Shown in pieces: positions 2,095 through 55,587 of a stretch of 64,000 nt of DNA. The stretch is from an uncultured Candidatus Saccharibacteria bacterium (GTDB lineage: Bacteria; Patescibacteriota; Minisyncoccia; Phycocordibacterales; UBA918). The DNA is taken from contig CAYGKO010000004.1 in the NCBI GenBank assembly GCA_964350735.1, forward strand, positions 19,583 through 83,582, in the 5' to 3' direction. Positions within the stretch are counted from its first letter, which is position 1. Every line of letters starts with the position of its first letter. A model generated the notes under the pieces. That model made no database searches and was not told where the DNA came from. It saw only the letters and a list, made by a program, of their open reading frames with translations. Both the position numbers and the translations under genes were made by a program.

Positions 2095-4008
2095 TTATTT
2101 AGTCGTAAATTCAAATACCCCACTCCAGTCGGTCGGTGGATTTTTCTGCAGATCAATCGCCCGTCCTAGGAACACTTTACTCGGACCATCCTCCGGATCA
2201 ATCTCTAATGCAGCTTTAAATGACTGCTCTGCTTTTAGAAAATCGCCGGCCAGGTACGAGACTCTGCCGGCAGCAAAATGCGCCAAGACTTTTTCTACTT
2301 CAGGAGTCAGGTCGGTAGTGATAAGTTCATAAATACGACGTGGTTCTTTTTTCCCTTTTACCATTACATCATCAAGTTCCCGCGTATGGAGATGTGAAAT
2401 ATCTTTAATCTCATAAAAGGTTTTTTCGCCAATCAAACAAAATACTCCGTATTGCTTGGTCAGTCCTTCGATTCGGGCTGAGAAGTTCACTTCGTCGCCA
2501 ATGATCGAATAATTAAACCGGCGTTTAGAACCCATGTTACCTACCACCACGTCACCCGTACTGACGCCAACACCAATGCCAAACGGTGGGCGGCCTTCGG
2601 CCGCCCACCGTACATTAAGCTTCTGTAGCGACTGCATCATCACCACCACACTCTCACACGCTAACTGCGCGTGGTTTTTCATCTGCAGTGGTGCTCCCCA
2701 AAACGCCATCACTGCATCTCCAATATATTTATCTACCAAACCCTGCTTTTGCATCACCGCCTCGGACATTTCTTCTAAATATTCATTAAGTTGTGTCATC
2801 AATTCTTGCGGCGTGAGCTGTTCTGACAGAGTAGTAAACCCCCGAATATCAGAAAACAAAATGGACAGCTCGCGCGTTTCCCCACCAAGCGCCAACTTAC
2901 CTGGATTCTTCTGTAATTCATCTACTACTTCACTAGCTACGTAATGTTCGAATCCTTTTCGAATGAATTCCTTCTCTTTGCTTTCATACACAAACTGCAG
3001 CAAGAGGAGTGCGCCTGTTAGCAACAAAAACAAAATCAACTCATATAAATGAGGTACTAAAATACCAAAAGAAAATGCGATGTAGGCATCTAAGATAATC
3101 CCGAAAAAGACTACTGCCAGCAAGATGTACAAATTGCGCGCTGTTTTGATTCTAGTAACAATAAGTAAAATCAAAAGCGCTAGAATGACAAACACCAGCA
3201 AGGAACCAGCTGGGTGTAATGGCTCAAGGTAATTCTCTGACCATATTGTATTGATGGCGTTAGCATGCACCTCAACTCCTGGCATTACTCCAAATGGCGT
3301 CTGGAAGGTGTCACCGAGTCCTGCCGCACTGGCTCCTACCAACACAGTTTTGTCTCTGAATAATTCTTTTGGTAGCGTGCCCTTAAGCACATCTACGTAT
3401 GAGAGTGTGGTATAGGTAGTGGCTGGACCTGCAAAGTAGATACGAGTATTTTGAGGGACTGATTCAGTAGATTGAACCGCCGCGACGGTACTCTCGAAGC
3501 TCAAGGTCCCGTCCCGATACAATTCAGCCCGGCGCACAACACCATCACGGTCAGTAGCCGTATTCACAAAACCAGTTTGAGCGGCCTGATCTAAAATCTG
3601 AATTGGTTGTATAACTGTATTGCTTTGTTCGTCGATGACACCTGCCAACACCACTTCACCATCAAACGCTACAATCGAACGCGCTAAATTATTATCGTCT
3701 TCGGCTCCTAAAGATGATGGTTCAGTAAAAAGCACATCGAAACCAACCATTCGGGCTGATCCAATCGCATCCAGCAGCTGGCCGTGAATACTGCGACTCC
3801 AGGGCCACTGACCGATCGCTGCAAGACTTACCTCGTCAATATCAATTATCACGATGTCACTTGAAGGCTCAGACGGCGCAAAGAATCGGTCAGTAAGCTG
3901 AGCTTCAAGTGTATCGAACACACCAAAGTAAAAACTCAGACCAACAACACTCGTCACAACTATCGTGACGAAATACAAAGCTCTAGTGCGAGTGAAGAAT
4001 GTAGACAT
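2095..4008 (-). CDS. CHASE2 sensor domain adenylate/guanylate cyclase (class III nucleotidyl cyclase) with a C-terminal TPR-like tail
   Basis: 637 aa. The N-terminal TM is followed by an extracytoplasmic CHASE2-like region (VIIDIDEVSL...GQWPWSRS) and a multi-TM block. The class III cyclase core is visible (FSDIRGFTTLSE, GIGVGVSTGDVVVGNMGS, NFSARIE). Confidence 0.8.
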   Translation of the reverse strand: MSTFFTRTRALYFVTIVVTSVVGLSFYFGVFDTLEAQLTDRFFAPSEPSSDIVIIDIDEVSLAAIGQWPWSRSIHGQLLDAIGSARMVGFDVLFTEPSSLGAEDDNNLARSIVAFDGEVVLAGVIDEQSNTVIQPIQILDQAAQTGFVNTATDRDGVVRRAELYRDGTLSFESTVAAVQSTESVPQNTRIYFAGPATTYTTLSYVDVLKGTLPKELFRDKTVLVGASAAGLGDTFQTPFGVMPGVEVHANAINTIWSENYLEPLHPAGSLLVFVILALLILLIVTRIKTARNLYILLAVVFFGIILDAYIAFSFGILVPHLYELILFLLLTGALLLLQFVYESKEKEFIRKGFEHYVASEVVDELQKNPGKLALGGETRELSILFSDIRGFTTLSEQLTPQELMTQLNEYLEEMSEAVMQKQGLVDKYIGDAVMAFWGAPLQMKNHAQLACESVVVMMQSLQKLNVRWAAEGRPPFGIGVGVSTGDVVVGNMGSKRRFNYSIIGDEVNFSARIEGLTKQYGVFCLIGEKTFYEIKDISHLHTRELDDVMVKGKKEPRRIYELITTDLTPEVEKVLAHFAAGRVSYLAGDFLKAEQSFKAALEIDPEDGPSKVFLGRAIDLQKNPPTDWSGVFEFTTK

Positions 4009-4010
4009 GC

Positions 4011-5333
4011 TTATGGTGTTGCAGTATCACTCTCTCCCGCTCCTGATACAGTTATAGTAAGTACCTCTTGCAAGAACGTATCGAAGATATGCAATTCAGT
4101 CGGACTAAAGAGTCCCCAGTCAAATGGCGGTTCGTTATCCACCAAAATTGTATCAACAATATCCATACCTGGGCCACGTACAATCACAAATTCCATACTA
4201 TCAGCAAAACCACTAGTGATCTCTTCAATCTTAAGTACTACCAACTCTTCCTCCTCTTCTAACACCACTTCAAACGCTCCCTTGAGTTCAAACGATTCAT
4301 CACCAGCAAAGAGCTCTATGTCATAGACCTCATCCTTTTCTGGTAGTTCATACGACCCAATAATCAAGATATCATCTCGCGTCACTTCGAACTCAACATC
4401 ACTACCATTAAGCGTTACCCGGTCTACCATTTCAAAGCCTGATCCACTGACTATCACCCTATCTTCAAGTCGAGGATCAAAGCGAACTGGATCAACTTCA
4501 TCGATACTAAGAACGAGCTCTTCGGGTTCTGGCTCAACTTCTGGAGTGGTCGTTGGAGTAATCTCTGGTTCTGGTTCTGGTTCCACCACAGGTACCACTA
4601 GGGCGGGTGGGATAACAACTGCTGGCGGATCGATCTCAATCATCTCAACCGGCTTCACTGTTGTTTCCGGATTATTTTCCACATACCAGTCATCCCGGTC
4701 TAACGGCTTTGTTTCCCTCACCGTAAAAACCTCTCCATTATCTTCAAGCGTACTCCCTGCCGATACAAACACTTCTGTCCCCGGCTTCGTTTCACCAGTA
4801 ACTGGATCGCGTTGCTGCGCTCGGACGGTTCCTTCGGTTACTACCAAGCTTTTAGTCGGATCGAGACTGACACCAAACGACGTCCCACGAACTGCCGCTA
4901 CCATGGTTGGCGTGTACACTTCGTAGACCTCGTCTTGTTCGAGTGCCCGTTCAATTTTGGTCCACGTCTTCCCCGCCGTGAGTTCAATCCTAGTCTGCTT
5001 TTTATCGGGACTAAGCGCTAGCTTGATTTCAGAGTTACTATCAAGTGATGTGATGATCTCCAGGTCGTTAGCAATCACTGCCCGCCCTTCAGTTGAGGTC
5101 CGTACCCCCGCTCCATCTTCCACTTCACTCACCGCACTGATCACCTTCCAAGCCTCGGGATCAAGCAAGCTCGTCATCTCAACGTCCGCAGACAGCGGAG
5201 TAAGAATCGCTCGCTCAGTCGCTTCAACCACTGTCGCTGGATCAGCTAGCTTTTCTTCTGACACGCCTTGATACCAGTACCCAGCCGCCGCTATCACCAC
5301 GAGAATCCCCCCAAGAATATATACGTTTTTCAT
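4011..5333 (-). CDS. FecR-domain secreted protein with a Pro/Glu-rich linker
   Basis: 440 aa with a signal or anchor at the N-terminus. It carries the FecR-like motif VYTPTMVAAVRGTSFGV and a PEPEPE-rich low-complexity linker. It is a paralog of the adjacent gene 5336-6253. Confidence 0.55.
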   Translation of the reverse strand: MKNVYILGGILVVIAAAGYWYQGVSEEKLADPATVVEATERAILTPLSADVEMTSLLDPEAWKVISAVSEVEDGAGVRTSTEGRAVIANDLEIITSLDSNSEIKLALSPDKKQTRIELTAGKTWTKIERALEQDEVYEVYTPTMVAAVRGTSFGVSLDPTKSLVVTEGTVRAQQRDPVTGETKPGTEVFVSAGSTLEDNGEVFTVRETKPLDRDDWYVENNPETTVKPVEMIEIDPPAVVIPPALVVPVVEPEPEPEITPTTTPEVEPEPEELVLSIDEVDPVRFDPRLEDRVIVSGSGFEMVDRVTLNGSDVEFEVTRDDILIIGSYELPEKDEVYDIELFAGDESFELKGAFEVVLEEEEELVVLKIEEITSGFADSMEFVIVRGPGMDIVDTILVDNEPPFDWGLFSPTELHIFDTFLQEVLTITVSGAGESDTATP

Positions 5334-28750: not shown

Positions 28751-29235
28751 ATACATCAAAAGGAAATGGCTGACTCGATCAGAGATCGTGTCAGCCATCG
28801 ACAGTTGCTATGTCGGATTAGCTAGTTCCGACACCTACGAGCAGTCAACCCGTAGTTCAGCCGTGCTCGGGCCGAATAAAATTAAGTACAGGCTTCTGTT
28901 GCCAGGCGCCTGCGGACCCCGCCTTAAGCTGCGAAGCCTAAGGACTTAAGGCATTACGCCCGACCAACGAGGCCGTGCGCTCCACCCAGATTGGCTGCCA
29001 TCCACGCGGGAACCGCGTCATGACCGCCATCGCTTTTAGCACGAGTGCCATTTGCGAAAAGTGAACCGATAACGGTGGTGTCTCACCGAACAAAAGCTAA
29101 CTCCTTTAGACGTCCGTCGATCCTATTTCGACCCCTGCATCCAAACGTTCGGGTGTTTGGTGGAGCCGCCGGGTACCGCCCCCGGGTCCGATCCGTTTAT
29201 TGCGAGCGCGTTTATTGCCATAGATCCCTAGAGAT
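28751..29235 (-). ncRNA. ssrA: Candidate circularly permuted (two-piece) tmRNA gene (ssrA) with its terminator
   Basis: Read 5'->3' on the minus strand, a T-arm-like CCGGG-GGCGGUA-CCCGG is followed by the acceptor 3' strand CGGCUCC-ACCA (+29158-29166). A 22-nt spacer follows, then GGGGUCG-AAAUA-GGAUCGACGG (+29135 downward), which resembles the tmRNA 5' end. GGGGUCG and CGGCUCC form 7 pairs including G3.U. An ORF-like frame starting GCA AAU lies 81 nt in. A terminator hairpin occupies 28768-28796. Confidence 0.5.
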
Positions 29236-29271
29236 CAGTTTCATCCTAGTATTAAAATAATTGAAAGTCAA
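29236..29271 (-). promoter_or_regulatory. Putative sigma70-like promoter for the tmRNA precursor
   Basis: On the minus strand, TTGACT is followed by a 17-nt spacer and TAGGAT, immediately after the stop of the HAD-hydrolase gene. The predicted start would give an acceptor piece of about 78 nt. Confidence 0.3.
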
Positions 29272-29955
29272 CTAAATATTGTAAATTACGTCTTTTCGCT
29301 CCACTACGACCTCCCAACCTCGTCGCTCTGCCTGCTCGTATAGCTTCTGATTTGGATTAAAACAAATCGCTCGTTCAACACTTTCAAACATTGGAATGTC
29401 ACCGTCAGTATCACCAACAGCAATCGAACCAGCAAAAGACACTGCTTCCCGATCTAGTACGCGCGCCACAATATTGGCCTTATTTTCGATCAAGTGCACA
29501 TCGGTCATTTCACCCGTAAAGCAATCCTGTGGTCCAATCTCATAGATGCGACCATACACTTTATCAAAACCTTGAGTTTTACAAAATTCGTCGAGGATAG
29601 TTTTTGGAGATTGTGAGATTGCTACTACAAAATAACCTTCTCTTTTTAATTCATGAATCAGATCCCGGGTATACCGATACACATGTTTGCTTTGCTCTCC
29701 CACAACCATTCTGCCCAGATCAGCCAATGTTCCGTAATGAACGCCTCTAATATGAGTAACGTAACAGTTAATTACTGCCCGTATGTACGCATCGTAAGTC
29801 CCCTCCCGATTCCGCCACGCATGATAGGCGTCGCTGTATTCAGCTCGTGACTGCTTTGCAAACACCCCCTCAGACACCAGTTTCTCCACCAGTTCAATTA
29901 ATAAACTGGAGCGAAATACTGTGCCGTCTATGTCAAAAAATGCTACCGGTTTCAT
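29272..29955 (-). CDS. HAD-superfamily subfamily IB hydrolase (phosphoserine-phosphatase-like)
   Basis: The start is taken at MKPVAFFDIDGT (HAD motif I). Motif IV is GDTDGD. Length is 227 aa. Confidence 0.7.
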   Translation of the reverse strand: MKPVAFFDIDGTVFRSSLLIELVEKLVSEGVFAKQSRAEYSDAYHAWRNREGTYDAYIRAVINCYVTHIRGVHYGTLADLGRMVVGEQSKHVYRYTRDLIHELKREGYFVVAISQSPKTILDEFCKTQGFDKVYGRIYEIGPQDCFTGEMTDVHLIENKANIVARVLDREAVSFAGSIAVGDTDGDIPMFESVERAICFNPNQKLYEQAERRGWEVVVERKDVIYNI

Positions 29956-40500: not shown

Positions 40501-41778
40501 TCAAACAATCAGCTCTCGTAATAACTCCTGCTGTAGCTGATTGGTTGGATCATATTTGCCCAGCAATACAGATTCGAACAACTCAGGGCGCTCAGCCATG
40601 GCTGCCCACATACGTAAATTACCTTCGAGATATAACTTATCTTTTAAGAAGCAGAGTCCTGGCAATGCAGGATTACCGCCACGGAAGATTCGTACACATA
40701 AGCGCCACACATACTCTGTTGCTACAATATCAACATCATCTCGATTATGGCGACTGAAGCGATCGATGTAATACGGCTCCAAAAATGCAAAGGTCTCCTG
40801 GAAATCACGAGACTTCCCATCGAACAATCCTGTTGCTACCCCCAAGGCAAAGTATTTATCCCGGCCTGAAAATCGAAACTCACCAGCAACCAGTTGACTA
40901 CTCATAATGGCCAAACCTTCCTCTGCCGCCTGATACCCCGCCAACCCAATCGCCAAGAGCTGGAGAGGGCTTTTAAAGCCATTTTCGTACCGTCTAACGT
41001 GCACGCCAACCTCATGTGCATAGAGTTGATGTATTTTATCTGCGGAATATCGAGCTTTCTTGGGGATGAGGATTACCTGGCTTTTGTTCCGCACGTTGAT
41101 AGTATTTGTACGAGTACTCACCTTGCAGCGCCATTTTGGTGCAACTTTTTGTAGATTTTCGTTCCAAATTTCGACAACCTGATCCGCTGTATATGTGTCA
41201 TGACTCTGTTCCGTCAAGAACTGCAGCGGCTCCAGATACTTTTCTGCACTACTAATGGTGTCTGCTGTTGGCACAACAAACACATCACTATGTGAAGAAG
41301 GGTGTCTCTGAACACGTATTTGCAAATCTTTAATATACGGTGAGTGCCCGGCCATGTCAGATAAAACTGCATCAAAAATAGTCTTATCTAAAGACCCATA
41401 AAGCTTTTCTGTATACATACTGAACTGCGAATAATCCGCGGTTGCGGTTGCTGAGAGCATATCAAGGGAAAGTAGTAGTTCATCAACCTTTTGAAGATAG
41501 AGCGTTGATATTGACTTTTGGGCCTCTTCTTGTAGTATTTTACTTCGCAGGCTCAAAAGCTTGCCTTTCGCAACCGCATTCGCATTTTCATCTAGAAATA
41601 GATACTCGAATTGCGGATTAATTTTTTTACCTGAAGCCACAAAGGTATTAAAACAACTACGCATATTTACCGGCTTGATAGCATACGACCGCACTGCAGT
41701 TGGCAGAGAGAAAGAACGTAACGCCGTGAACCACTGCGCATCATTTTTCCTTAATTCTGGTTCAATCAATTTCATCAT
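40501..41778 (-). CDS. QEGLA-motif protein (DUF1704; MATCAP-like putative metallopeptidase)
   Basis: 425 aa. It has YQAAEEGLAIM (the QEGLA motif) and an HExxxH-like HEVGVH. Its length and C-terminal region match the flavohemoglobin expression-modulating QEGLA family, which is typically encoded next to RimK-like ATP-grasp ligases. Confidence 0.75.
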   Translation of the reverse strand: MMKLIEPELRKNDAQWFTALRSFSLPTAVRSYAIKPVNMRSCFNTFVASGKKINPQFEYLFLDENANAVAKGKLLSLRSKILQEEAQKSISTLYLQKVDELLLSLDMLSATATADYSQFSMYTEKLYGSLDKTIFDAVLSDMAGHSPYIKDLQIRVQRHPSSHSDVFVVPTADTISSAEKYLEPLQFLTEQSHDTYTADQVVEIWNENLQKVAPKWRCKVSTRTNTINVRNKSQVILIPKKARYSADKIHQLYAHEVGVHVRRYENGFKSPLQLLAIGLAGYQAAEEGLAIMSSQLVAGEFRFSGRDKYFALGVATGLFDGKSRDFQETFAFLEPYYIDRFSRHNRDDVDIVATEYVWRLCVRIFRGGNPALPGLCFLKDKLYLEGNLRMWAAMAERPELFESVLLGKYDPTNQLQQELLRELIV

Positions 41779-41795
41779 TATAATGACTATAAGTT

Positions 41796-42776
41796 ATGGC
41801 AGCTAAAGTTACAAATCTACAAATACTCAAACGGGCCGCAAAAAAGTTCGGATACAGCTACGGTCTCATTGATACCCCTTATTCAGAGGCTATTTATGTT
41901 ACTGATGGTGAGCGCCATTTTATCTCTCGTTCCAAAACAAAATATGGGATGTACCCAACTAACTATAAGTTCGGTGAGCACCTAGTCGATGACAAGGCAG
42001 TGACCAAACGAGTTCTAAAAAAATTTGGCTTTCGGGTTATTAAAGGCAAGGCTTTTCATATTGCCCCTCCCTACAAGCAGGCCATTACGATCAAACAAGC
42101 TGATCGGGTTCCAGCGGCGTATAAGTACGCAAAAAACATCACGTACCCTGTGTTTGTAAAACCAAACTCTGGGTCCCGCGGACTGCACGCAAGACTTATT
42201 TTCAATGAAAGTGCTTTCAAAAAACATGTTGCTACCATGAAAGCTGACAAGGTTAAATCATTTATCGTTGAGAAGTTCACTCAGAGACCAGAGTACCGCA
42301 TTTTTGTAGTAGGTGGTAAAGCTCAATTCATGTATCGCAAACAACGGGTTTCGATCACTGGTACCGGAACCCACACCATCGACGAACTCATTGAACTCTC
42401 TAACCATATCCCAGATGAAGAATTCCTCGGTCAACTACTACGAAATCAAAAGAAAACCCGTAATACAGTCCTCAGTTCAGACCATGAGCTTGTGCTGCAA
42501 GAAACAGCCAATATCAGTCTAGGTGCTGAAATTATTGATTACCGAGAAAAAATCCCTAAGTCTATCGACAAATGGACTAATCGACTCTACCAAACTGTTG
42601 GATTAGAAGTATTTGGCGTTGACGTATTCACTAAAGGTGAATGGGATGAACCAAATCAATATCTCATCATTGAAGTCAACTCTTCACCAGCCCTGTCTGG
42701 GATATACAACAAGGGACACCAAGAAAAGGTCTACAAGATCTGGCAAAGAATCATGACAAAATTCTTCGTTTCTTAA
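41796..42776 (+). CDS. RimK-like ATP-grasp ligase (alpha-L-glutamate ligase-related), paralog 1
   Basis: 326 aa with the ATP-grasp C-terminal signature LGVDVFTKGE...YLIIEVNSSPALSG and a central VFVKPNSGSRG. It is divergent from the QEGLA gene with only 17 bp between the ORF starts. Confidence 0.65.
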   Translation: MAAKVTNLQILKRAAKKFGYSYGLIDTPYSEAIYVTDGERHFISRSKTKYGMYPTNYKFGEHLVDDKAVTKRVLKKFGFRVIKGKAFHIAPPYKQAITIKQADRVPAAYKYAKNITYPVFVKPNSGSRGLHARLIFNESAFKKHVATMKADKVKSFIVEKFTQRPEYRIFVVGGKAQFMYRKQRVSITGTGTHTIDELIELSNHIPDEEFLGQLLRNQKKTRNTVLSSDHELVLQETANISLGAEIIDYREKIPKSIDKWTNRLYQTVGLEVFGVDVFTKGEWDEPNQYLIIEVNSSPALSGIYNKGHQEKVYKIWQRIMTKFFVS

Positions 42777-48909: not shown

Positions 48910-49611
48910 TTAATTCTCTGGCAATCTATCTTCTTTTGAACCATAGAGATCAGCAATGATCGCAGCGCGTTTTTTGAAATTACGTACAGAGAACAGAAGT
49001 GCACCTAGAGTGAATAGTCCTTGCCCAACAGCGATTGGCACATGCCAAGACGCTTCCAGGCTCACTCCTGGATATAAATACAAAAAGAGTAGAGCCGCTA
49101 CATTAAAGAGAACCGTCAGTGGTATCAGCACATACAATCCCAACTTTTGCTCACGCAGTAGCACTTCGTAAAAATCAGCTCCGGCTGGAGTTGCAGCAAT
49201 TTCTACCCTCTGCTCCTTTACAATGGACAGGTCTACGAGGTACAGCAAGCCTCCGAAAATCGATATTAGTAAGAACACCCAGAACCACACCAAAGTATCC
49301 GTCACGTTTGAAAACGCCACCACCTGGAAGAACCCAATCACAAAGTATAAAAAGGTGTGCTGCAAGCGAATTGGCCAATCAATAAAACTAAGAGTGTGAC
49401 TGATCGCTTCAGACCAGAAAAACAAAGCAAATAAAAAACCAGTCAAAATATACGGCCAGTATTCCAGATACTCCAGATCTACAACTGAAGCTGCCGATAC
49501 TGCTAATGCACTAAGTGCTACCCCTTGCACCACACTCACCAAGACCAGCTCAATAGTGACAACCAACTCCCCTAATGTTCCTCGTTCGGTAAAGATTTTT
49601 GCTTTGGACAT
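48910..49611 (-). CDS. Hypothetical polytopic membrane protein
   Basis: 233 aa with about 6 TM helices. Confidence 0.4.
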   Translation of the reverse strand: MSKAKIFTERGTLGELVVTIELVLVSVVQGVALSALAVSAASVVDLEYLEYWPYILTGFLFALFFWSEAISHTLSFIDWPIRLQHTFLYFVIGFFQVVAFSNVTDTLVWFWVFLLISIFGGLLYLVDLSIVKEQRVEIAATPAGADFYEVLLREQKLGLYVLIPLTVLFNVAALLFLYLYPGVSLEASWHVPIAVGQGLFTLGALLFSVRNFKKRAAIIADLYGSKEDRLPEN

Positions 49612-49614
49612 ACT

Positions 49615-50403
49615 TTAGAAGTGTGCGACTGCTAACGTCGTATGTTTTATCGCTTCATCAACCACCTTCCGCATCACTGCCACCGTAGCTACCGGGTTGG
49701 CTCCAACTGCAGTTTCATTCGAAAGCATCGTCGCACTCGCACCATCAAGCACAGCATGGGCAATATCTGAAATATCGGCCCGTGATGGATCAGCATCATC
49801 AATCATTGATGTTAGCATTTCAGTTGCCACAATAGCCGGCTTTCCGACAGCATTACAACGTCGTAAAATATCTTTTTTTACAAACGGTAGGGTCTCAATC
49901 GGAATTGCATCCCCCAAGTCACCCCGAGCAATCATAATACCGTCGGCAGCTGTGATAATCTCATCCAGATTATTGAGTGCTTCCGAACGTTCAATTTTGG
50001 CAATTACTTTAGTCGACACTCGGTGATCTTGCAGCAACGCTTTCAATTCCAAAATATCAGTCGCATCTTTTACAAACGACAAGGCAACGTACTCTAAATC
50101 ATGCTTAACCATAGCAGCTAAATCAGAGCGGTCTTTGTCAGTAATAACCGATGCCGATTGGTCAAAAGTATGGACCACACCTTGCTGCACCCTAGGACCA
50201 GACAAATCTTGAATAATTGGCACCTGTAACCCAAGCCTGACAGCTGCTTGACGCACATCATGCACAAACCGCTGATGTTCTTCGTGTGTACCCCACGAGA
50301 AATTAAGTCGCGCTATCGATAAACCAGCTTCCATCATATTGGTGATGATGGCGCTATCTTTTGAAGCCGGACCAATCGTGGCCACAATTTGAGTAGTAGA
50401 CAT
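49615..50403 (-). CDS. pyk: Minimal pyruvate kinase (A/TIM-barrel domain only; B and C domains absent)
   Basis: 262 aa. It has the PK N-terminus (QIVATIGPAS...ARLNFSWGTHEEH) and PK signature (VIAKIERSEALNNLDEI, MIARGDLGDAIPIE). There is no lid domain insertion after GPRVQ and no C-terminal allosteric domain. Confidence 0.7.
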   Translation of the reverse strand: MSTTQIVATIGPASKDSAIITNMMEAGLSIARLNFSWGTHEEHQRFVHDVRQAAVRLGLQVPIIQDLSGPRVQQGVVHTFDQSASVITDKDRSDLAAMVKHDLEYVALSFVKDATDILELKALLQDHRVSTKVIAKIERSEALNNLDEIITAADGIMIARGDLGDAIPIETLPFVKKDILRRCNAVGKPAIVATEMLTSMIDDADPSRADISDIAHAVLDGASATMLSNETAVGANPVATVAVMRKVVDEAIKHTTLAVAHF

Positions 50404-50406
50404 ACG

Positions 50407-52881
50407 TTAAGAGTAGATAGTAATAAGTCTATTATACTTCACCGCTCGTTCTGACTGACTCGGTGCACCTGCCTTTAAACCAAATGCTTTTGTGCCAAAT
50501 GCTAAATCAGCAATAAAATTATCATCCGTCTCACCACTACGGTGGCTCACAATGCACCAAATTTTATTTTCATAGGCAAGTTGCATGGTGGCCAGTGTAT
50601 CGCTCAGCGTCCCGATCTGATTAGGCTTAATAATCAACGCATTCACTGCATTACAGTCGATCGCTTTTTGTAACTGCTCAACATTTGTAGTGGTCAAATC
50701 ATCACCGATGGTCAGCACCCCTGGGTGCGCCTCGTGATAGGAGGCAAAAGCCTTCATATCATGCTCTTGATATGGATCTTCGACCATTTGTAGCATTGGG
50801 AATTTTTTATGGAGTTCAGTATAAAAATCAAGCATACCTTCGACACTAAGGATTTCTCCTCCTAGTGCATATGCTTCCTTTTTATAAAACGAACTAGCGG
50901 CCACATCAGTTCCAATCAAAATTGGAACTTCACACTGAGCTCGTTTAATCGCTGTGGCAATATGCGCAAACGGTTCGAATACATCATGACTCGGAATCAC
51001 AAAGCCACCTTCATCACCGACAGTGATCTCTTTGTGTTTGTAAGTCTCATGCAATACCTCCCGCAGCTCTCGCTGCACTTGTTTTACAGCCGCTAGTGCT
51101 GCCTGTACATCATCAGTGTCTGGAATAATTTGATGTTCTTGAATTGCACTACCCACCTTGGCGTGTTGACCACCATTAATGAGATTGACGAATAATCGCG
51201 GTGCAACTGACTGCTCTCGATATGAAAAGAGTTCTGCGATATGCTGCCAGGTTTCGACTCCCTTCACTGCTGCAGCCGCTTTACACGCAGCCACACTAAT
51301 ACCAAGTGCAAGATTCCCGCCAATAGCAGCGAAGTTTTTAGTCCCATCAATTGTATGCAACGCGGCATCAAGCGCAGCCTGGTCGGTCACGTCCATACCC
51401 AGCAGCACTGACTGCACTTTCTTTTGTAGTATCTGTACTGCTTTGTGGGCAGGAAGCACCGCCACTTCATACTCACCAGTACTGGCCCCACTTGGTACGC
51501 TGAACGTACCAGTTTCGCCACCAGCTATGACACTCACTTGAACAGTTGGCTTCCCTCGGGAGTCTTGTATCACTCGTGCTTCTACGTCAGTGATTGCTGT
51601 ATCGGTCAATTCCGACTGCGCAGTAATGAGGAGCATCAAGTCTGACACATTTGACTCCAGCAATCCGGTTTTAATATGCCCTCCAGTTGTATTGAAAAAC
51701 GGGAAGGAATCAAAGCGCTCTAAATGATCAGCAATTGACAAGGCTCGCTCTGCTGCGCGGATAACAATTTCTTCATCAGCAATCGCTCCAGCCATGTCAG
51801 TATTATCACGTCCATCAGACGCTAGCGAAACAAAGGCTTGATTAGGCTCAAGTGCTGACAACATACTGAGCGCTAAATAACTATTGCGACCACCAGTCCC
51901 ATCCGCTGCTTCAGTCACCATTACTTTTGTTTCTCCACCCATACAGCGCGCTACACCGCTACCCGCTTCTTCTAAGAGTAATTCTTTAGTTTCAGGCGCT
52001 GTGGTGTACTGAGTAGCGGACACCAGGTCAGCTCGATATGATAATGCTTCGGCTTTTTCCTGCATTGCATTCAAGGCTGTGACATTCGAAGCAATCGTGA
52101 AGTTATGCACTCGCTCAAAATACTTTGGCTCCTTTGGGGTCTCCACTAGTCGAAATGAACCCAGCGCATATTTCTCAATCAGCGCTTGGGCGTCATGAAT
52201 CGTGGTGGTGTCAAAACAGGTCGGACCAGAGGCTACAGCTGCTATATCACCACCTGGCACATCAGAAAAAACTAACCCTGCGACCGTTGCTGGGTAGAGA
52301 GCTTTAGCTAGTCCTCCACCTTTAAGGTGTGAGATATGCTTGCGGACAATATTCAATTCTTCAATCGTGCCGCCGCTTTGTAGGAATGATTCAAACAACT
52401 GAATCCCTTGAGTGCACTCCCCCATCGATGAGCACAACAGCGCGGAACCTCCTCCAGACACAACTACTAGTACCAAGTCTCGCTCTTTAGCAGTGCGTGC
52501 CACTTCTTCAATGTGTTTGGTGGCAGTATAGTTTTGTTGCGATGGTAATGGATGCGTACCGGCATACGTATCAACTACCTGACAAACTTTTTCGGCCACG
52601 CCAATCACTGCACCATTTTTTACTCGGCCATTTAAAATCTGCTCCAGAGTGTGCGCAGCAGTACAAGCCACCTTGCCAAACCCGATGACGTACACATGTT
52701 CGTGCTCACGTAGGTCAAATTGATGCCCTTGAATCTGTAACACATCATCACAGAGAGTAATATTGTTGTTAAGAACTGTCTTTGTATCAATCGCTTGCAG
52801 GCCTGCTTCTGCAATCAATAAAGCATCCCGCCGCAGGGGTGAAGTTGCTAGTTCGTCAAAATTTTTAATAATCTGCCTCAT
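50407..52881 (-). CDS. Fusion protein: glycerate 2-kinase (MOFRL/GckA family) fused to enolase
   Basis: 824 aa. Roughly the first 400 aa carry DUF4147/MOFRL features (VVVSGGGSALL, C-terminal TG..SNVSDLMLLI). The enolase part follows (IQDSRGKPTVQVSV...SVPSGASTGEYE and C-terminal SHRSGETDDNFIADLAFG...PSQSERAVKYNRL). It is one uninterrupted frame whose start overlaps the upstream dehydrogenase stop by 4 bp. Confidence 0.8.
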   Translation of the reverse strand: MRQIIKNFDELATSPLRRDALLIAEAGLQAIDTKTVLNNNITLCDDVLQIQGHQFDLREHEHVYVIGFGKVACTAAHTLEQILNGRVKNGAVIGVAEKVCQVVDTYAGTHPLPSQQNYTATKHIEEVARTAKERDLVLVVVSGGGSALLCSSMGECTQGIQLFESFLQSGGTIEELNIVRKHISHLKGGGLAKALYPATVAGLVFSDVPGGDIAAVASGPTCFDTTTIHDAQALIEKYALGSFRLVETPKEPKYFERVHNFTIASNVTALNAMQEKAEALSYRADLVSATQYTTAPETKELLLEEAGSGVARCMGGETKVMVTEAADGTGGRNSYLALSMLSALEPNQAFVSLASDGRDNTDMAGAIADEEIVIRAAERALSIADHLERFDSFPFFNTTGGHIKTGLLESNVSDLMLLITAQSELTDTAITDVEARVIQDSRGKPTVQVSVIAGGETGTFSVPSGASTGEYEVAVLPAHKAVQILQKKVQSVLLGMDVTDQAALDAALHTIDGTKNFAAIGGNLALGISVAACKAAAAVKGVETWQHIAELFSYREQSVAPRLFVNLINGGQHAKVGSAIQEHQIIPDTDDVQAALAAVKQVQRELREVLHETYKHKEITVGDEGGFVIPSHDVFEPFAHIATAIKRAQCEVPILIGTDVAASSFYKKEAYALGGEILSVEGMLDFYTELHKKFPMLQMVEDPYQEHDMKAFASYHEAHPGVLTIGDDLTTTNVEQLQKAIDCNAVNALIIKPNQIGTLSDTLATMQLAYENKIWCIVSHRSGETDDNFIADLAFGTKAFGLKAGAPSQSERAVKYNRLITIYS

Positions 52882-53885
52882 ACTGATACCTGATTTGCCG
52901 CTACTCCAGCTGCAAATGACTGGATGTTACTCACCGTAATATCAGTGATTTCCCGCTTGGCTTCAGCGGTGTTAAAAGCAATATGTGGTGTCACGATCAC
53001 ATTCGACATATCAATGAGCGCATGATCGGCCACTAGGGTTTCCCATAGTGTAGCGTCGACATTTTGTGCGACCAGTAACTCAGCCTCCTCGCGTAATTCG
53101 TGCTCTCCTTCAAGCACATCAAGTCCGGCTCCAGCTATATGTCCGGACTGCAGTGCCTCTACCAAAGCTTTGGTGTCGACCACTTCGCCACGAGCGGTAT
53201 TTATTAAATAGCTACCCGACTTCATCAAAGCTAGTTTTTCTGCATTTAGTAGATGGTGTGTAGCGGGAATAGCAGGTACGTGCAACGTCACGATATCAGC
53301 CTGAATCAATACTTCATCAAGCGACTGATATTGCAGCGCCTGCTCATTTGCGAACCCCTCATCTGGCTGTACGTCATAGGCGACTACATTCATACCGATC
53401 CCTCTTGCGATCTCACATACACTGCGTCCGATCGCGCCGGTACCCACCACCCCTAAAGTCTTTCCGTACAGATCAAACCCTTCATACGTTGCAAAATTTG
53501 TTACCCCTGCATCTTTCTGCATATCAGTATACGAACGAAAGGCGTTCCGCGACAACGCAAACATGAGCGCAATCGCATATTCAGCGACCGTACGCGTGCC
53601 ATAGTGCGGGACGCGGCACACTACCATCCCTCGTTCAGCTGCCGCCGCAACATCAATATGATCATATCCAGCCGAACGCGCGGCAATCAATTTTAAATTT
53701 GGAAATAAACTAAGTGTTTCAGTAGTAACTGGAGAGTCAACAAATACACTTAAAACCTCCATCGCTTCACGATCGGCAACAGATAATTCCTCGACACTTT
53801 CAACCACCACCCACTCATGAGCAGGCGCTGTTGCTGCCAAAATATCGATCTCGCCTGGATACGGTCGAACATAGCCTATTTTCAT
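52878..53885 (-). CDS. D-isomer-specific 2-hydroxyacid dehydrogenase (glycerate dehydrogenase/hydroxypyruvate reductase-like)
   Basis: 335 aa with NAD-binding GKTLGVVGTGAIGRSV and the catalytic His region in PHIAFNT. Confidence 0.8.
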   Translation of the reverse strand: MKIGYVRPYPGEIDILAATAPAHEWVVVESVEELSVADREAMEVLSVFVDSPVTTETLSLFPNLKLIAARSAGYDHIDVAAAAERGMVVCRVPHYGTRTVAEYAIALMFALSRNAFRSYTDMQKDAGVTNFATYEGFDLYGKTLGVVGTGAIGRSVCEIARGIGMNVVAYDVQPDEGFANEQALQYQSLDEVLIQADIVTLHVPAIPATHHLLNAEKLALMKSGSYLINTARGEVVDTKALVEALQSGHIAGAGLDVLEGEHELREEAELLVAQNVDATLWETLVADHALIDMSNVIVTPHIAFNTAEAKREITDITVSNIQSFAAGVAANQVSV

Positions 53886-54107: not shown

Positions 54108-54117
54108 ATGCTAACAG

Positions 54118-54188
54118 CTGCCCGACAGGGATTCGAACCCCAGTTGACGGTACCAGAAACCGCAGTCCTACCACTAGACGATCGGGCA
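54118..54188 (-). tRNA. tRNA-Gln (anticodon CUG), 71 nt
   Basis: A manual fold gives acceptor TGCCCGA/TCGGGCA, D-arm GTCT-AGTGGTA-GGAC, anticodon stem GCGGT/ACCGT with loop TTCTGGT, and T-arm TGGGG-TTCGAAT-CCCTG. G37 is unusual and there are two G.U pairs in the T-stem. Confidence 0.6.
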
Positions 54189-54249: not shown

Positions 54250-54891
54250 TTACCGCTTGCTGACATCTATCTTTTCGATCAATTCCCAGGCGCAGGTATG
54301 CGACGCTGCGTTCTCATTAAAATGTAGATGAAACACTTCAGTATTTTTAGTCCGGAGAGTATTCAAAATACCTTTGGCATACTGATAAAACGACAAATCA
54401 ATCTCGTTACAGATCAACTCTACAAACAAATTCATAAAGATGGCGTGTGACACTACCACCACCCGATCCCCTTTACTCTCTCCGATCGCATCTTTGGCAT
54501 CGTGAATCCGATTACGAATATCAAACATGTTCTCAGCGCCTTCGTGTTGCCAATCGTTATTATCTCGCTGCCAGAAAAAGTCTTTCAGATATCTAAATGA
54601 TGCCAGCGAAGCATGTTTCTTGCCATACAAACTATCGGGTCGACGGAACTCAGCTACACTTGGTAGCGGCATGATCGGTACATTGACATGCGACTCGATA
54701 ATCTCAGCTGTCTCACGGGCGCGAACCAACGGACTGGCAAAGAGCGTATCAATCGACTGGCTCACCAAATACTGCCCCACCGTGTGCGCCTGCTGCCTCC
54801 CCTTCTCATTAAGGGGTGATTCGGGCAGTTGATGCACGTGCTTGGCATTGAAGGCCGTCTGACCATGTCGTACAAAAAAGATCTCCATCAA
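54250..54891 (-). CDS. Histidine phosphatase superfamily protein (phosphoglycerate mutase-like), paralog A
   Basis: 213 aa with the N-terminal catalytic RHG motif (IFFVRHGQTAFN). Confidence 0.7.
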   Translation of the reverse strand: MMEIFFVRHGQTAFNAKHVHQLPESPLNEKGRQQAHTVGQYLVSQSIDTLFASPLVRARETAEIIESHVNVPIMPLPSVAEFRRPDSLYGKKHASLASFRYLKDFFWQRDNNDWQHEGAENMFDIRNRIHDAKDAIGESKGDRVVVVSHAIFMNLFVELICNEIDLSFYQYAKGILNTLRTKNTEVFHLHFNENAASHTCAWELIEKIDVSKR

Positions 54892-54960: not shown

Positions 54961-55587
54961 TTATTCAGCGAAGTGCGCGTGGTCGTTCCAAGTCAAAAGC
55001 TGCCAATTTGTTTCAGGACTATACTGAAAAACAGTTATACCCGTATTCGACAGTCGCAATGCTTTATACATCTGGGCCCACAGCTCTGGGGTTGGAACGC
55101 CAGAACTTAATACATACGTGGCAAAAAACTTTGCAATATACTCATGGGAAACCACCATAGTATCTCCAGATTTTTCTTGTAGCAGATCAAATGCTGTTTT
55201 GGTGCGATCGGTTAATTCTGTAAAGCTTTCTGAATCTTCAAACTTCCAATCAGCTTCATGCAGATTTGCCACTTCTGCTTCTCTATACATGACATACTCG
55301 GGAAGAGTTTTATCCCAACCATCAAAACGAGAAGGACGCTTACGCTCGGCAAACAAATCACTTACTTCAACGCTGTGTGAAGTAATCGATGCGACAGCTG
55401 CTGCCGTGTCAGAAGCCCGAGCTGCTGGACTTGAATAGAGTGTCTCAAACTGCAAACTGCCGGCTCGTGCCGCAAGCAAGGACGCCTCCTTTACTCCCAA
55501 ATCATTCAACGGTGTCTGGGCTGATTGCTGAATATTACCTACTGAACCGTCAGTCGCTCCATGACGGACAAAATACACTCGTTTCAT
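54961..55587 (-). CDS. Histidine phosphatase superfamily protein (phosphoglycerate mutase-like), paralog B
   Basis: 208 aa with the RHG motif (VYFVRHGATDGS). It is a tandem paralog of the preceding gene. Confidence 0.7.
   Translation of the reverse strand: MKRVYFVRHGATDGSVGNIQQSAQTPLNDLGVKEASLLAARAGSLQFETLYSSPAARASDTAAAVASITSHSVEVSDLFAERKRPSRFDGWDKTLPEYVMYREAEVANLHEADWKFEDSESFTELTDRTKTAFDLLQEKSGDTMVVSHEYIAKFFATYVLSSGVPTPELWAQMYKALRLSNTGITVFQYSPETNWQLLTWNDHAHFAE

Follow-up and report, generated by a model that had tools for sequence, protein, structure and literature searches.

A single minus-strand gene in the 64,000-nt stretch of DNA analyzed here (contig CAYGKO010000004.1; the whole stretch is hereafter the window, and all positions are those of the window) joins a complete MOFRL-family glycerate kinase (GK) to a complete enolase. 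In all likelihood, the product is a genuine bifunctional GK-enolase, which is encoded by the second gene of an operon leading to pyruvate, evolved from separate genes by stop codon loss, and has the activities predicted for the respective families. It is the domain architecture that is new; the enzymes themselves are known.

The gene (50407..52881, minus strand) is one open reading frame (ORF) that starts with ATG, encodes 824 aa and has no internal stops, in accord with the single 824-codon frame of the initial annotation, and the DNA across the GK-enolase junction is in-frame and continuous, with neither a stop nor a homopolymer tract. The profile searches of each half that had been proposed in that annotation matched all four domains, namely DUF4147 (PF13660, residues 21-241, E = 5e-57), MOFRL (PF05161, residues 313-414, E = 2e-22), Enolase_N (PF03952, residues 430-548, E = 2e-31) and Enolase_C (PF00113, residues 560-822, E = 9e-63). 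Together with the full-length alignments, the related clusters and the split-gene relatives described below, these matches bear out the view that a complete MOFRL kinase is joined to a complete enolase. Every motif quoted in support of that view (GGGSAL, SNVSDLMLLI, DSRGKPTVQV, SVPSGASTGEYE, SHRSGETDD and KYNRL) is found in the protein. The junction itself has to be redrawn. The enolase had been described as beginning with DSRGKPTVQV and following the kinase with no linker; the motif is present, but the actual start is I430 (ITDVEARVIQDSRG), ~10 residues ahead of DSRG, which aligns to residue 3 of human ENO1 and residue 1 of yeast enolase, and a linker of ~8 residues separates the final GK strand from the enolase. 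In the alignment of 35 fusions, this linker is 7-14 aa long and variable in sequence. A peptide spanning the junction would be, for instance, ...LLITAQSELTDTAITDVEAR or ...SNVSDLMLLITAQSELTDTAITDVEAR. The parts of the gene are as follows.

51619..52881, minus strand: GK half, residues 1-421 (DUF4147 and MOFRL matches in Pfam; alignment to solved MOFRL kinases)
51595..51618, minus strand: inter-domain linker, residues 422-429, QSELTDTA (family alignment; tails of the split genes)
50407..51594, minus strand: enolase half, residues 430-824, with the TAA stop at 50407-50409 (Enolase_N/Enolase_C; TIGR01060)

The enolase half scores above the cutoff of the NCBIfam family TIGR01060 'eno' (322.8 vs 300 bits), and the segment I430-I822 can be aligned end to end with over 60 enolases of solved structure, beginning at their residues 1-3 (best match 2pa6, 1e-74). 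The functional residues were mapped on the alignment to human alpha-enolase (2psn), on which we placed what we take to be the ENO1 numbering and residue roles:

S467 (ENO1 S40): Mg ligand
H573 (ENO1 H158): substrate binding
E582 (ENO1 E167): substrate binding
E624 (ENO1 E210): general acid
D659, E701 and D727 (ENO1 D245, E293 and D318): Mg ligands
K752 (ENO1 K343): general base
H780-R781-S782 (ENO1 H371-R372-S373): phosphate binding
K803 (ENO1 K394): substrate binding

All the mapped residues, from S467 to K803, are unchanged across the 35 aligned fusions (44-100% identity), i.e., the catalytic residues, the lack of which the initial annotation had named as the finding that would speak against a fused enolase, are present and invariant.

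The GK half aligns near full length to two solved glycerate kinases, Pyrococcus horikoshii PH0495 (1x3l, residues 11-434 of 440) and Thermotoga maritima TM1585 (2b8n, residues 50-425 of 429), and in these alignments the GxGK Lys and the motifs GGGS, KGG, ASGP, GGET and DGxD are identical to those of both structures. Invariant in the 35 fusions are K70, GGGS143-146, K187-GGG, D207, ASGPT217-221, G316-E317, GGRN330-333, D356/G357/D359 and N411. Judging by sequence, both halves look catalytically competent. All characterized MOFRL kinases yield 2-phosphoglycerate (2-PG) (Kehrer et al., 2007; PMC2063504), which backs the original suggestion that the product of the first enzyme is the substrate of the second and because of which the fusion should make phosphoenolpyruvate (PEP) from D-glycerate in two steps. 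The recurrence of the enolase fusion, described below, lends indirect support to 2-PG as the product of the GK half.

In the AlphaFold model of the fusion, which was built from the 35-fusion alignment, both halves are predicted to be well folded (mean pLDDT 90.5), with the linker block 421-430 among the lower-confidence 10-residue blocks (mean pLDDT 79). The enolase half of the model superposes on solved enolases with TM 0.85-0.90 and a root-mean-square deviation of 1.6-2.0 A, and more than half of the fusion model is covered by no solved chain (TMq <=0.47). MOFRL kinases as well as enolases are dimeric, and a fusion of the two might assemble into closed tetramers or filaments.

The fusion is not confined to one assembly or one genome. 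The identical 824-aa protein is found in a 165,809-nt NCBI contig and in the independent Logan assembly of run ERR3534985, and ~45 more full-length 90%-identity clusters containing all four domains (822-838 aa, 44-74% identical) come from JGI, ENA, Logan and NCBI. An exhaustive HMMER search of 1.84 billion representatives, clustered at 50% identity, detected the fused representatives P0034, P0038 and P0047 as well as two remote fusions (P0168 and P0179, 33-34% identity). In the databases, the protein is named 'DUF4147 domain-containing protein [Candidatus Kaiserbacteria / Saccharibacteria bacterium]' (NCBI) or 'phosphopyruvate hydratase' (JGI). Full-text literature searches found no description of a GK-enolase fusion or of the lidless pyruvate kinase (PK) encoded next to it (see below), which agrees with the statement of the initial annotation that the fusion was not known to be described and is consistent with a fusion that is undescribed in the literature although its sequences, under uninformative names, sit in public databases. 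The GroEL encoded in the window shares 83-86% identity with proteins labeled as GroEL of Candidatus Kaiserbacteria, Nomurabacteria or Paceibacterota, which come from contigs of up to ~1.09 Mb, and from these identities the host can be assigned to the Candidate Phyla Radiation (CPR, Patescibacteria), as a small-genome bacterium of the Paceibacteria (Parcubacteria) type.

Orthologous loci, whose comparison the initial annotation had suggested, exist in both the fused and the split state. The nearest stand-alone GK and enolase are 53-54% identical to the respective halves of the fusion. Among the stand-alone enolases of the entire representative library, the one nearest to the fusion (P0122, 53% identity) belongs to an unfused copy of the cassette on a JGI contig, in which a dehydrogenase gene is followed by genes for a 429-aa GK, a 403-aa enolase, the start of which overlaps the GK stop by 4 nt, and a 265-aa PK. 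Two more split cassettes (L019 and L020, NCBI GCA_041158645.1), which were reached via distant mini-PKs, have GAPDH as the divergent upstream neighbor and a thiamine pyrophosphate (TPP)-enzyme and aldehyde dehydrogenase pair downstream. Another split gck/eno pair (L006) was considered as a possible frameshifted fusion; this was ruled out given that, at the DNA level, stop and start overlap cleanly as ATGA, as in a true split pair. In the split genes, the GK tail past the last strand (5-8 aa) and the N-terminal extension of the enolase (3-5 aa) sum to the 7-14-aa linker of the fusions. Because sister lineages hold the same cassette with separate, overlapping genes, the tails of which add up to the linker, the fused state is derived, through stop loss between two translationally coupled genes. 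Under this scenario, the ancestor would have had gck and eno as separate genes, the stop of one overlapping the start of the next (ATGA, or by 8-14 nt), and a small indel would have removed the stop, joining the GK tail to the enolase N-terminus.

The fusion appears to have occurred repeatedly. Neighbor-joining trees of each half (rough, distance-based trees) recover the window protein and P0002-P0044, including a triple fusion, P0038, as a monophyletic main fused clade, the sisters of which are P0121, a stand-alone GK, and P0122, an enolase from a split cassette. The two trees also agree in that P0046 groups with other stand-alone GKs and enolases, and P0048 does likewise. Because these two proteins fall apart from the main clade in both trees, the topology implies that GK and enolase were fused at least three times independently within the CPR, each time in the same N-to-C order. 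Other combinations of the same module were identified as well: the GK-enolase-PK triple fusion (P0038, 1092 aa), GK-PK fusions (P0054 and P0124, 703 and 690 aa) that occupy two separate positions in the tree and so would have two independent origins, and GK fusions to a PEP-synthase/pyruvate, phosphate dikinase (PPDK)-type enzyme (P0064, P0068 and P0095, ~1250 aa). The loci L013 2279-5557 and L014 6001-8112, on other CPR contigs, are among these fusions.

The remote fusions P0168 (L016 5001-7727) and P0179 (L017/L018 2309-4993) come from contexts that do not look like CPR, one with a peptide ATP-binding cassette transporter, 2-Hacid_dh and Aldedh, the other with AraC and ornithine cyclodeaminase. 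In their enolase-like halves, the general-acid Glu is replaced by I or Y and the His of SHRS by L or G, and these proteins probably catalyze something other than the enolase reaction; hence they were set aside as evidence for the same function. A separate oddity is P0230 (668 aa), a fusion of a glycosyltransferase-2 domain to enolase.

The gene belongs to a tight cassette of four genes on the same strand, in the order 2-hydroxyacid dehydrogenase, GK-enolase, PK and membrane protein, with intergenic spacing of -4, +3 and +3 nt:

52878..53885, minus strand: D-isomer-specific 2-hydroxyacid dehydrogenase, 335 aa, operon gene 1 (Pfam 2-Hacid_dh_C and 2-Hacid_dh); its stop overlaps the ATG of the fusion (ATGA)
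50407..52881, minus strand: GK-enolase fusion, operon gene 2; TAA-CGT-ATG boundary to the PK gene
49615..50403, minus strand: mini PK, 262 aa (Pfam PK barrel, in two stretches); TAA-AGT-ATG boundary to the membrane protein gene
48910..49611, minus strand: hydrophobic, multi-pass membrane-like protein, 233 aa (ORF), translationally coupled to the PK gene

GK-II genes have been reported to cluster with genes for PK and 2-hydroxyacid dehydrogenase (PMC2063504), and fusions that are 59-63% identical to that of the window are likewise preceded by the dehydrogenase gene and followed by a gene for a 262-263-aa PK. In the case of P0046, the most divergent CPR fusion, the position of PK is taken by an 804-aa PEP-synthase/PPDK-type enzyme. 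The 233-aa protein has no Pfam or NCBIfam matches and is not kept in related cassettes; its gene is probably the last of the operon. It could transport a substrate or product of the pathway. A scan for promoters and terminators gave counts at the chance level.

The PK of this cassette is reduced to the A-domain barrel: ~12 residues stand in place of the B (lid) domain (~95 aa), and the C (regulatory/allosteric) domain is missing, so that the protein aligns only to residues 4-74 and 170-342 of 2e28. It keeps the motifs AKIE, ARGDLG, ATEML and RLNFSWG with the catalytic K/E/D/T, scores 293 against TIGR01064, under the cutoff of 306.4, and is modeled by AlphaFold2 with pLDDT 92.9 and pTM 0.90 (TMq 0.87-0.93 to PK A-domains). 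The mini-PK family comprises more than 120 clusters of 255-270 aa and, in the contexts that we examined, is always found within a GK/enolase cassette; the NCBI name is 'hypothetical protein'. Among the PDB matches listed, the only lidless PK is 7qdn, human liver PK engineered to lack the B-domain. This mini PK may be more surprising than the fusion itself.

The role of the dehydrogenase can be read in two ways. Its similarity to PDB and NCBIfam entries is spread over D-lactate dehydrogenase (D-LDH), phosphoglycerate dehydrogenase (PGDH) and glyoxylate/hydroxypyruvate reductase, the best PDB matches being D-LDH 3kb6 (193 bits), PGDH 1wwk (191) and D-LDH 5z20; glyoxylate reductase 2dbq scores 157. 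The dehydrogenases are orthologous in all the CPR cassettes (43-68% identity) and contain a long insert ahead of a TPHIAFNT motif; this insert and TPHIAF.T motif we take to be of the LdhA/HicDH type. Because the best full-length PDB matches are D-LDHs and the insert and motif are LdhA-type, a role as the final enzyme of the pathway, forming D-lactate from pyruvate, is suggested. Conversely, on contig L002 the dehydrogenase gene is still joined to the kinase gene where neither enolase nor PK adjoins, which suggests a hydroxypyruvate reductase/glycerate dehydrogenase that would supply D-glycerate from hydroxypyruvate, at the start of the pathway.

Just upstream of the cassette, with a tRNA-Gln gene (54117-54188) between, are two tandem genes of the phosphoglycerate mutase (PGM) superfamily:

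54250-54891, minus strand: His_Phos_1 gene (Pfam His_Phos_1)
54961-55587, minus strand: His_Phos_1 gene (Pfam His_Phos_1)

These have only weak, sub-threshold matches to dPGM/GpmB, and another His_Phos_1 gene is located two genes downstream of the GK-PK fusion on contig L014. Tentatively, we consider the His_Phos_1 genes to be candidates for divergent PGMs that would link 3-phosphoglycerate to 2-PG. The pair may represent the PGM that surveys of the CPR list as missing. No second enolase, GK or PK was detected in the window by tblastn. It is plausible that the enolase half is also the housekeeping enolase of the cell, a role that fits with the location of GAPDH as the divergent neighbor of related split cassettes.

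We propose that the N-terminal class II (MOFRL) kinase would convert D-glycerate and ATP to 2-PG, the C-terminal enolase would dehydrate 2-PG to PEP, and the mini PK would form pyruvate from PEP. The enolase half would also accept 2-PG from glycolysis, in line with the His_Phos_1 pair upstream and with GAPDH near the split cassettes. The operon as a whole would have two inputs, a C3 hydroxy-acid and 2-PG delivered by glycolysis, and turn both into pyruvate as the closing stage of fermentative carbon metabolism in a CPR bacterium of the Paceibacteria type. The fusion would give a 1:1 stoichiometry and co-localization of the consecutive steps; only from the fusion itself might substrate channeling be inferred.

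Several observations weigh against this proposal. The pTM of the fusion model is 0.62, and neither this value nor the unconserved 7-14-aa linker points to a tunnel or a fixed interface between the two domains. The GK half scores far under the cutoffs of the archaeal glycerate-2-kinase equivalogs of NCBIfam (NF041176, 187 vs 550; NF040791, 167 vs 670), and because of this D-glycerate is assigned as the probable substrate through family membership only; these are clade-specific archaeal equivalogs, and failing them means that the protein is outside those orthologous groups rather than that it is not a glycerate kinase. The upstream dehydrogenase looks more like a D-LDH than like a classical hydroxypyruvate reductase, no glycerate source was identified in the window, and the glycerate-to-pyruvate conversion is ATP-neutral, whichever role of the dehydrogenase holds.

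The alternative that survives best accepts the fusion as real and holds that it is selectively neutral: between overlapping, co-translated genes in a compact genome, stops are easily lost, and there would be no gain in kinetics or channeling beyond that of the operon. We do not favor this possibility but take it seriously. The cassette boundaries all fall between -14 and +3 nt, so that single small mutations create fusions. In the window, only 3 nt, in frame, lie between the stop of the enolase and the start of the PK, and one stop-to-sense substitution at TAA-CGT-ATG would recreate the GK-enolase-PK triple fusion. The lack of linker conservation and the pTM value are as a neutral fusion would have them, split relatives persist beside fused ones, and fusions to non-consecutive partners exist (GK-PK and GK-PEP synthase). 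Against neutrality, the main fused clade has been kept down to ~52-55% identity with no reversions seen, and the GK-enolase fusion arose at least three times in the same N-to-C order, although both patterns also fit a neutral ratchet.

It is improbable that the MOFRL half acts on a substrate other than D-glycerate, or is regulatory, with the enolase half just serving glycolysis. The scores under the curated equivalog cutoffs, an upstream dehydrogenase that is LdhA-like rather than a typical hydroxypyruvate reductase, and the glycerate source not identified within the window would all be accommodated by such a function. However, glycerate kinases are the only characterized MOFRL proteins (PMC2063504), the full-length alignment and motif conservation extend to two solved glycerate kinases, and the recurrent fusion to an enzyme that uses 2-PG itself points to 2-PG as the product.

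We consider it equally doubtful that the fused gene additionally gives rise to free enolase from an internal start, at M416 or a nearby GTG or TTG. There is an in-frame ATG (M416) 14 codons upstream of the enolase domain, and the enolase start was located here in the ancestral genes. However, M416 is Met in only 19 of the 35 family members, the linker has no other conserved Met, and the nearest GGAG lies 18 nt upstream of the M416 ATG, too far for a typical Shine-Dalgarno sequence. A conserved internal start at M416, without a well-spaced Shine-Dalgarno sequence, is therefore unsupported.

Finally, separate overlapping gck and eno genes do exist in related genomes, but the idea that errors of assembly or sequencing created the long ORF, with a missed stop or frameshift joining two genes, is effectively ruled out by the same 824-aa product in two assemblies, the continuous architecture kept in the ~45 other clusters and the homopolymer-free junction.

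Returning to the bifunctional GK-enolase, the fusion provides a Rosetta-stone link, that is, independent support for MOFRL kinases handing 2-PG straight to enolase, and would define a compact module from glycerate/2-PG to pyruvate in the CPR, the lower glycolysis of which is considered patchy (PMC7304191). In particular, enolase and PK have been described as patchy in the CPR, with no mention of the fusion (Jaffe et al., 2020; PMC7304191). Because NCBI names the fusion 'DUF4147 domain-containing protein' and the mini PK, which is under the TIGR01064 cutoff, 'hypothetical protein', metabolic reconstructions that depend on names or thresholds can score an enolase or PK that is present as absent. 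A bolder hypothesis, which we regard as unlikely, is that GK, enolase and the lidless mini PK form one physical glycerate-to-pyruvate 'metabolon', in which the PK would need contact with the GK-enolase for a closed, competent active site, and the repeated fusions would record selection for the hand-over of 2-PG and PEP. If so, the patchy distribution of enolase and PK reported for the CPR would in part be an artefact of how these atypical forms are annotated. The split, fused and triple-fused versions represent a natural series on the kinetic benefit of fusing consecutive enzymes.

Apart from this cassette, the window contains several other features that deserve mention:

28885..29275, minus strand: permuted (two-piece) transfer-messenger RNA (tmRNA) (Rfam alpha_tmRNA RF01849, 223.9 bits; tmRNA_permuted RF04321, 107.8 bits)
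40501..41778, minus strand: homologue of MATCAP (microtubule-associated tyrosine carboxypeptidase family, PF08014)
41796..42776, plus strand: weak RimK-like ATP-grasp protein, divergent from the MATCAP homologue
2095..5333, minus strand: CHASE2-sensor adenylate/guanylate cyclase (637 aa), then a FecR-domain protein (440 aa)

The alpha_tmRNA match occurs in a genome that GroEL places with CPR/Paceibacteria, not with alphaproteobacteria. The pairing of the MATCAP homologue with the RimK-like protein, also found on contig L001, is unexpected for a CPR bacterium. The cyclase and the FecR-domain protein make up a signaling module within an otherwise reduced genome.

Compared with the stand-alone MOFRL glycerate kinases (TM1585, 2b8n; PH0495, 1x3l; GarK of Thermoproteus tenax), the GK half has the same DUF4147+MOFRL fold, alignable over the full length, and the same motifs (GxGK/GGGS/KGG/GGET/DGxD); the known enzymes, however, are single-function proteins of 400-440 aa, whereas here the kinase lacks a stop and runs on into the enolase. 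With the canonical enolases (TIGR01060), the other half shares both domains, every catalytic, Mg-binding and phosphate-binding residue, a score over the equivalog cutoff and the predicted fold (TM 0.85-0.90). It differs in being fused to a kinase at the N-terminus and in being short (~395 aa), with the family model matched only to position 406 of 425, i.e., with a truncated C-terminal tail; the short form is also found in stand-alone CPR enolases (385-412 aa). A further counterpart is the split gck-eno cassette of sister CPR lineages, which encodes orthologous proteins in the same gene order (2-Hacid_dh, GK, enolase, mini-PK); there, GK and enolase are separate, with stop and start overlapping by 4-14 nt, whereas the window has the fused, derived state. 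None of this overturns established views, given that evolution is well known to join adjacent enzymes of a pathway. The phosphoglycerate kinase-triosephosphate isomerase (PGK-TIM) fusion of Thermotoga maritima and the TPI-GAPDH fusions of stramenopiles reportedly likewise join functionally adjacent enzymes of central carbon metabolism from neighboring genes; it is the enzyme pair that differs here.

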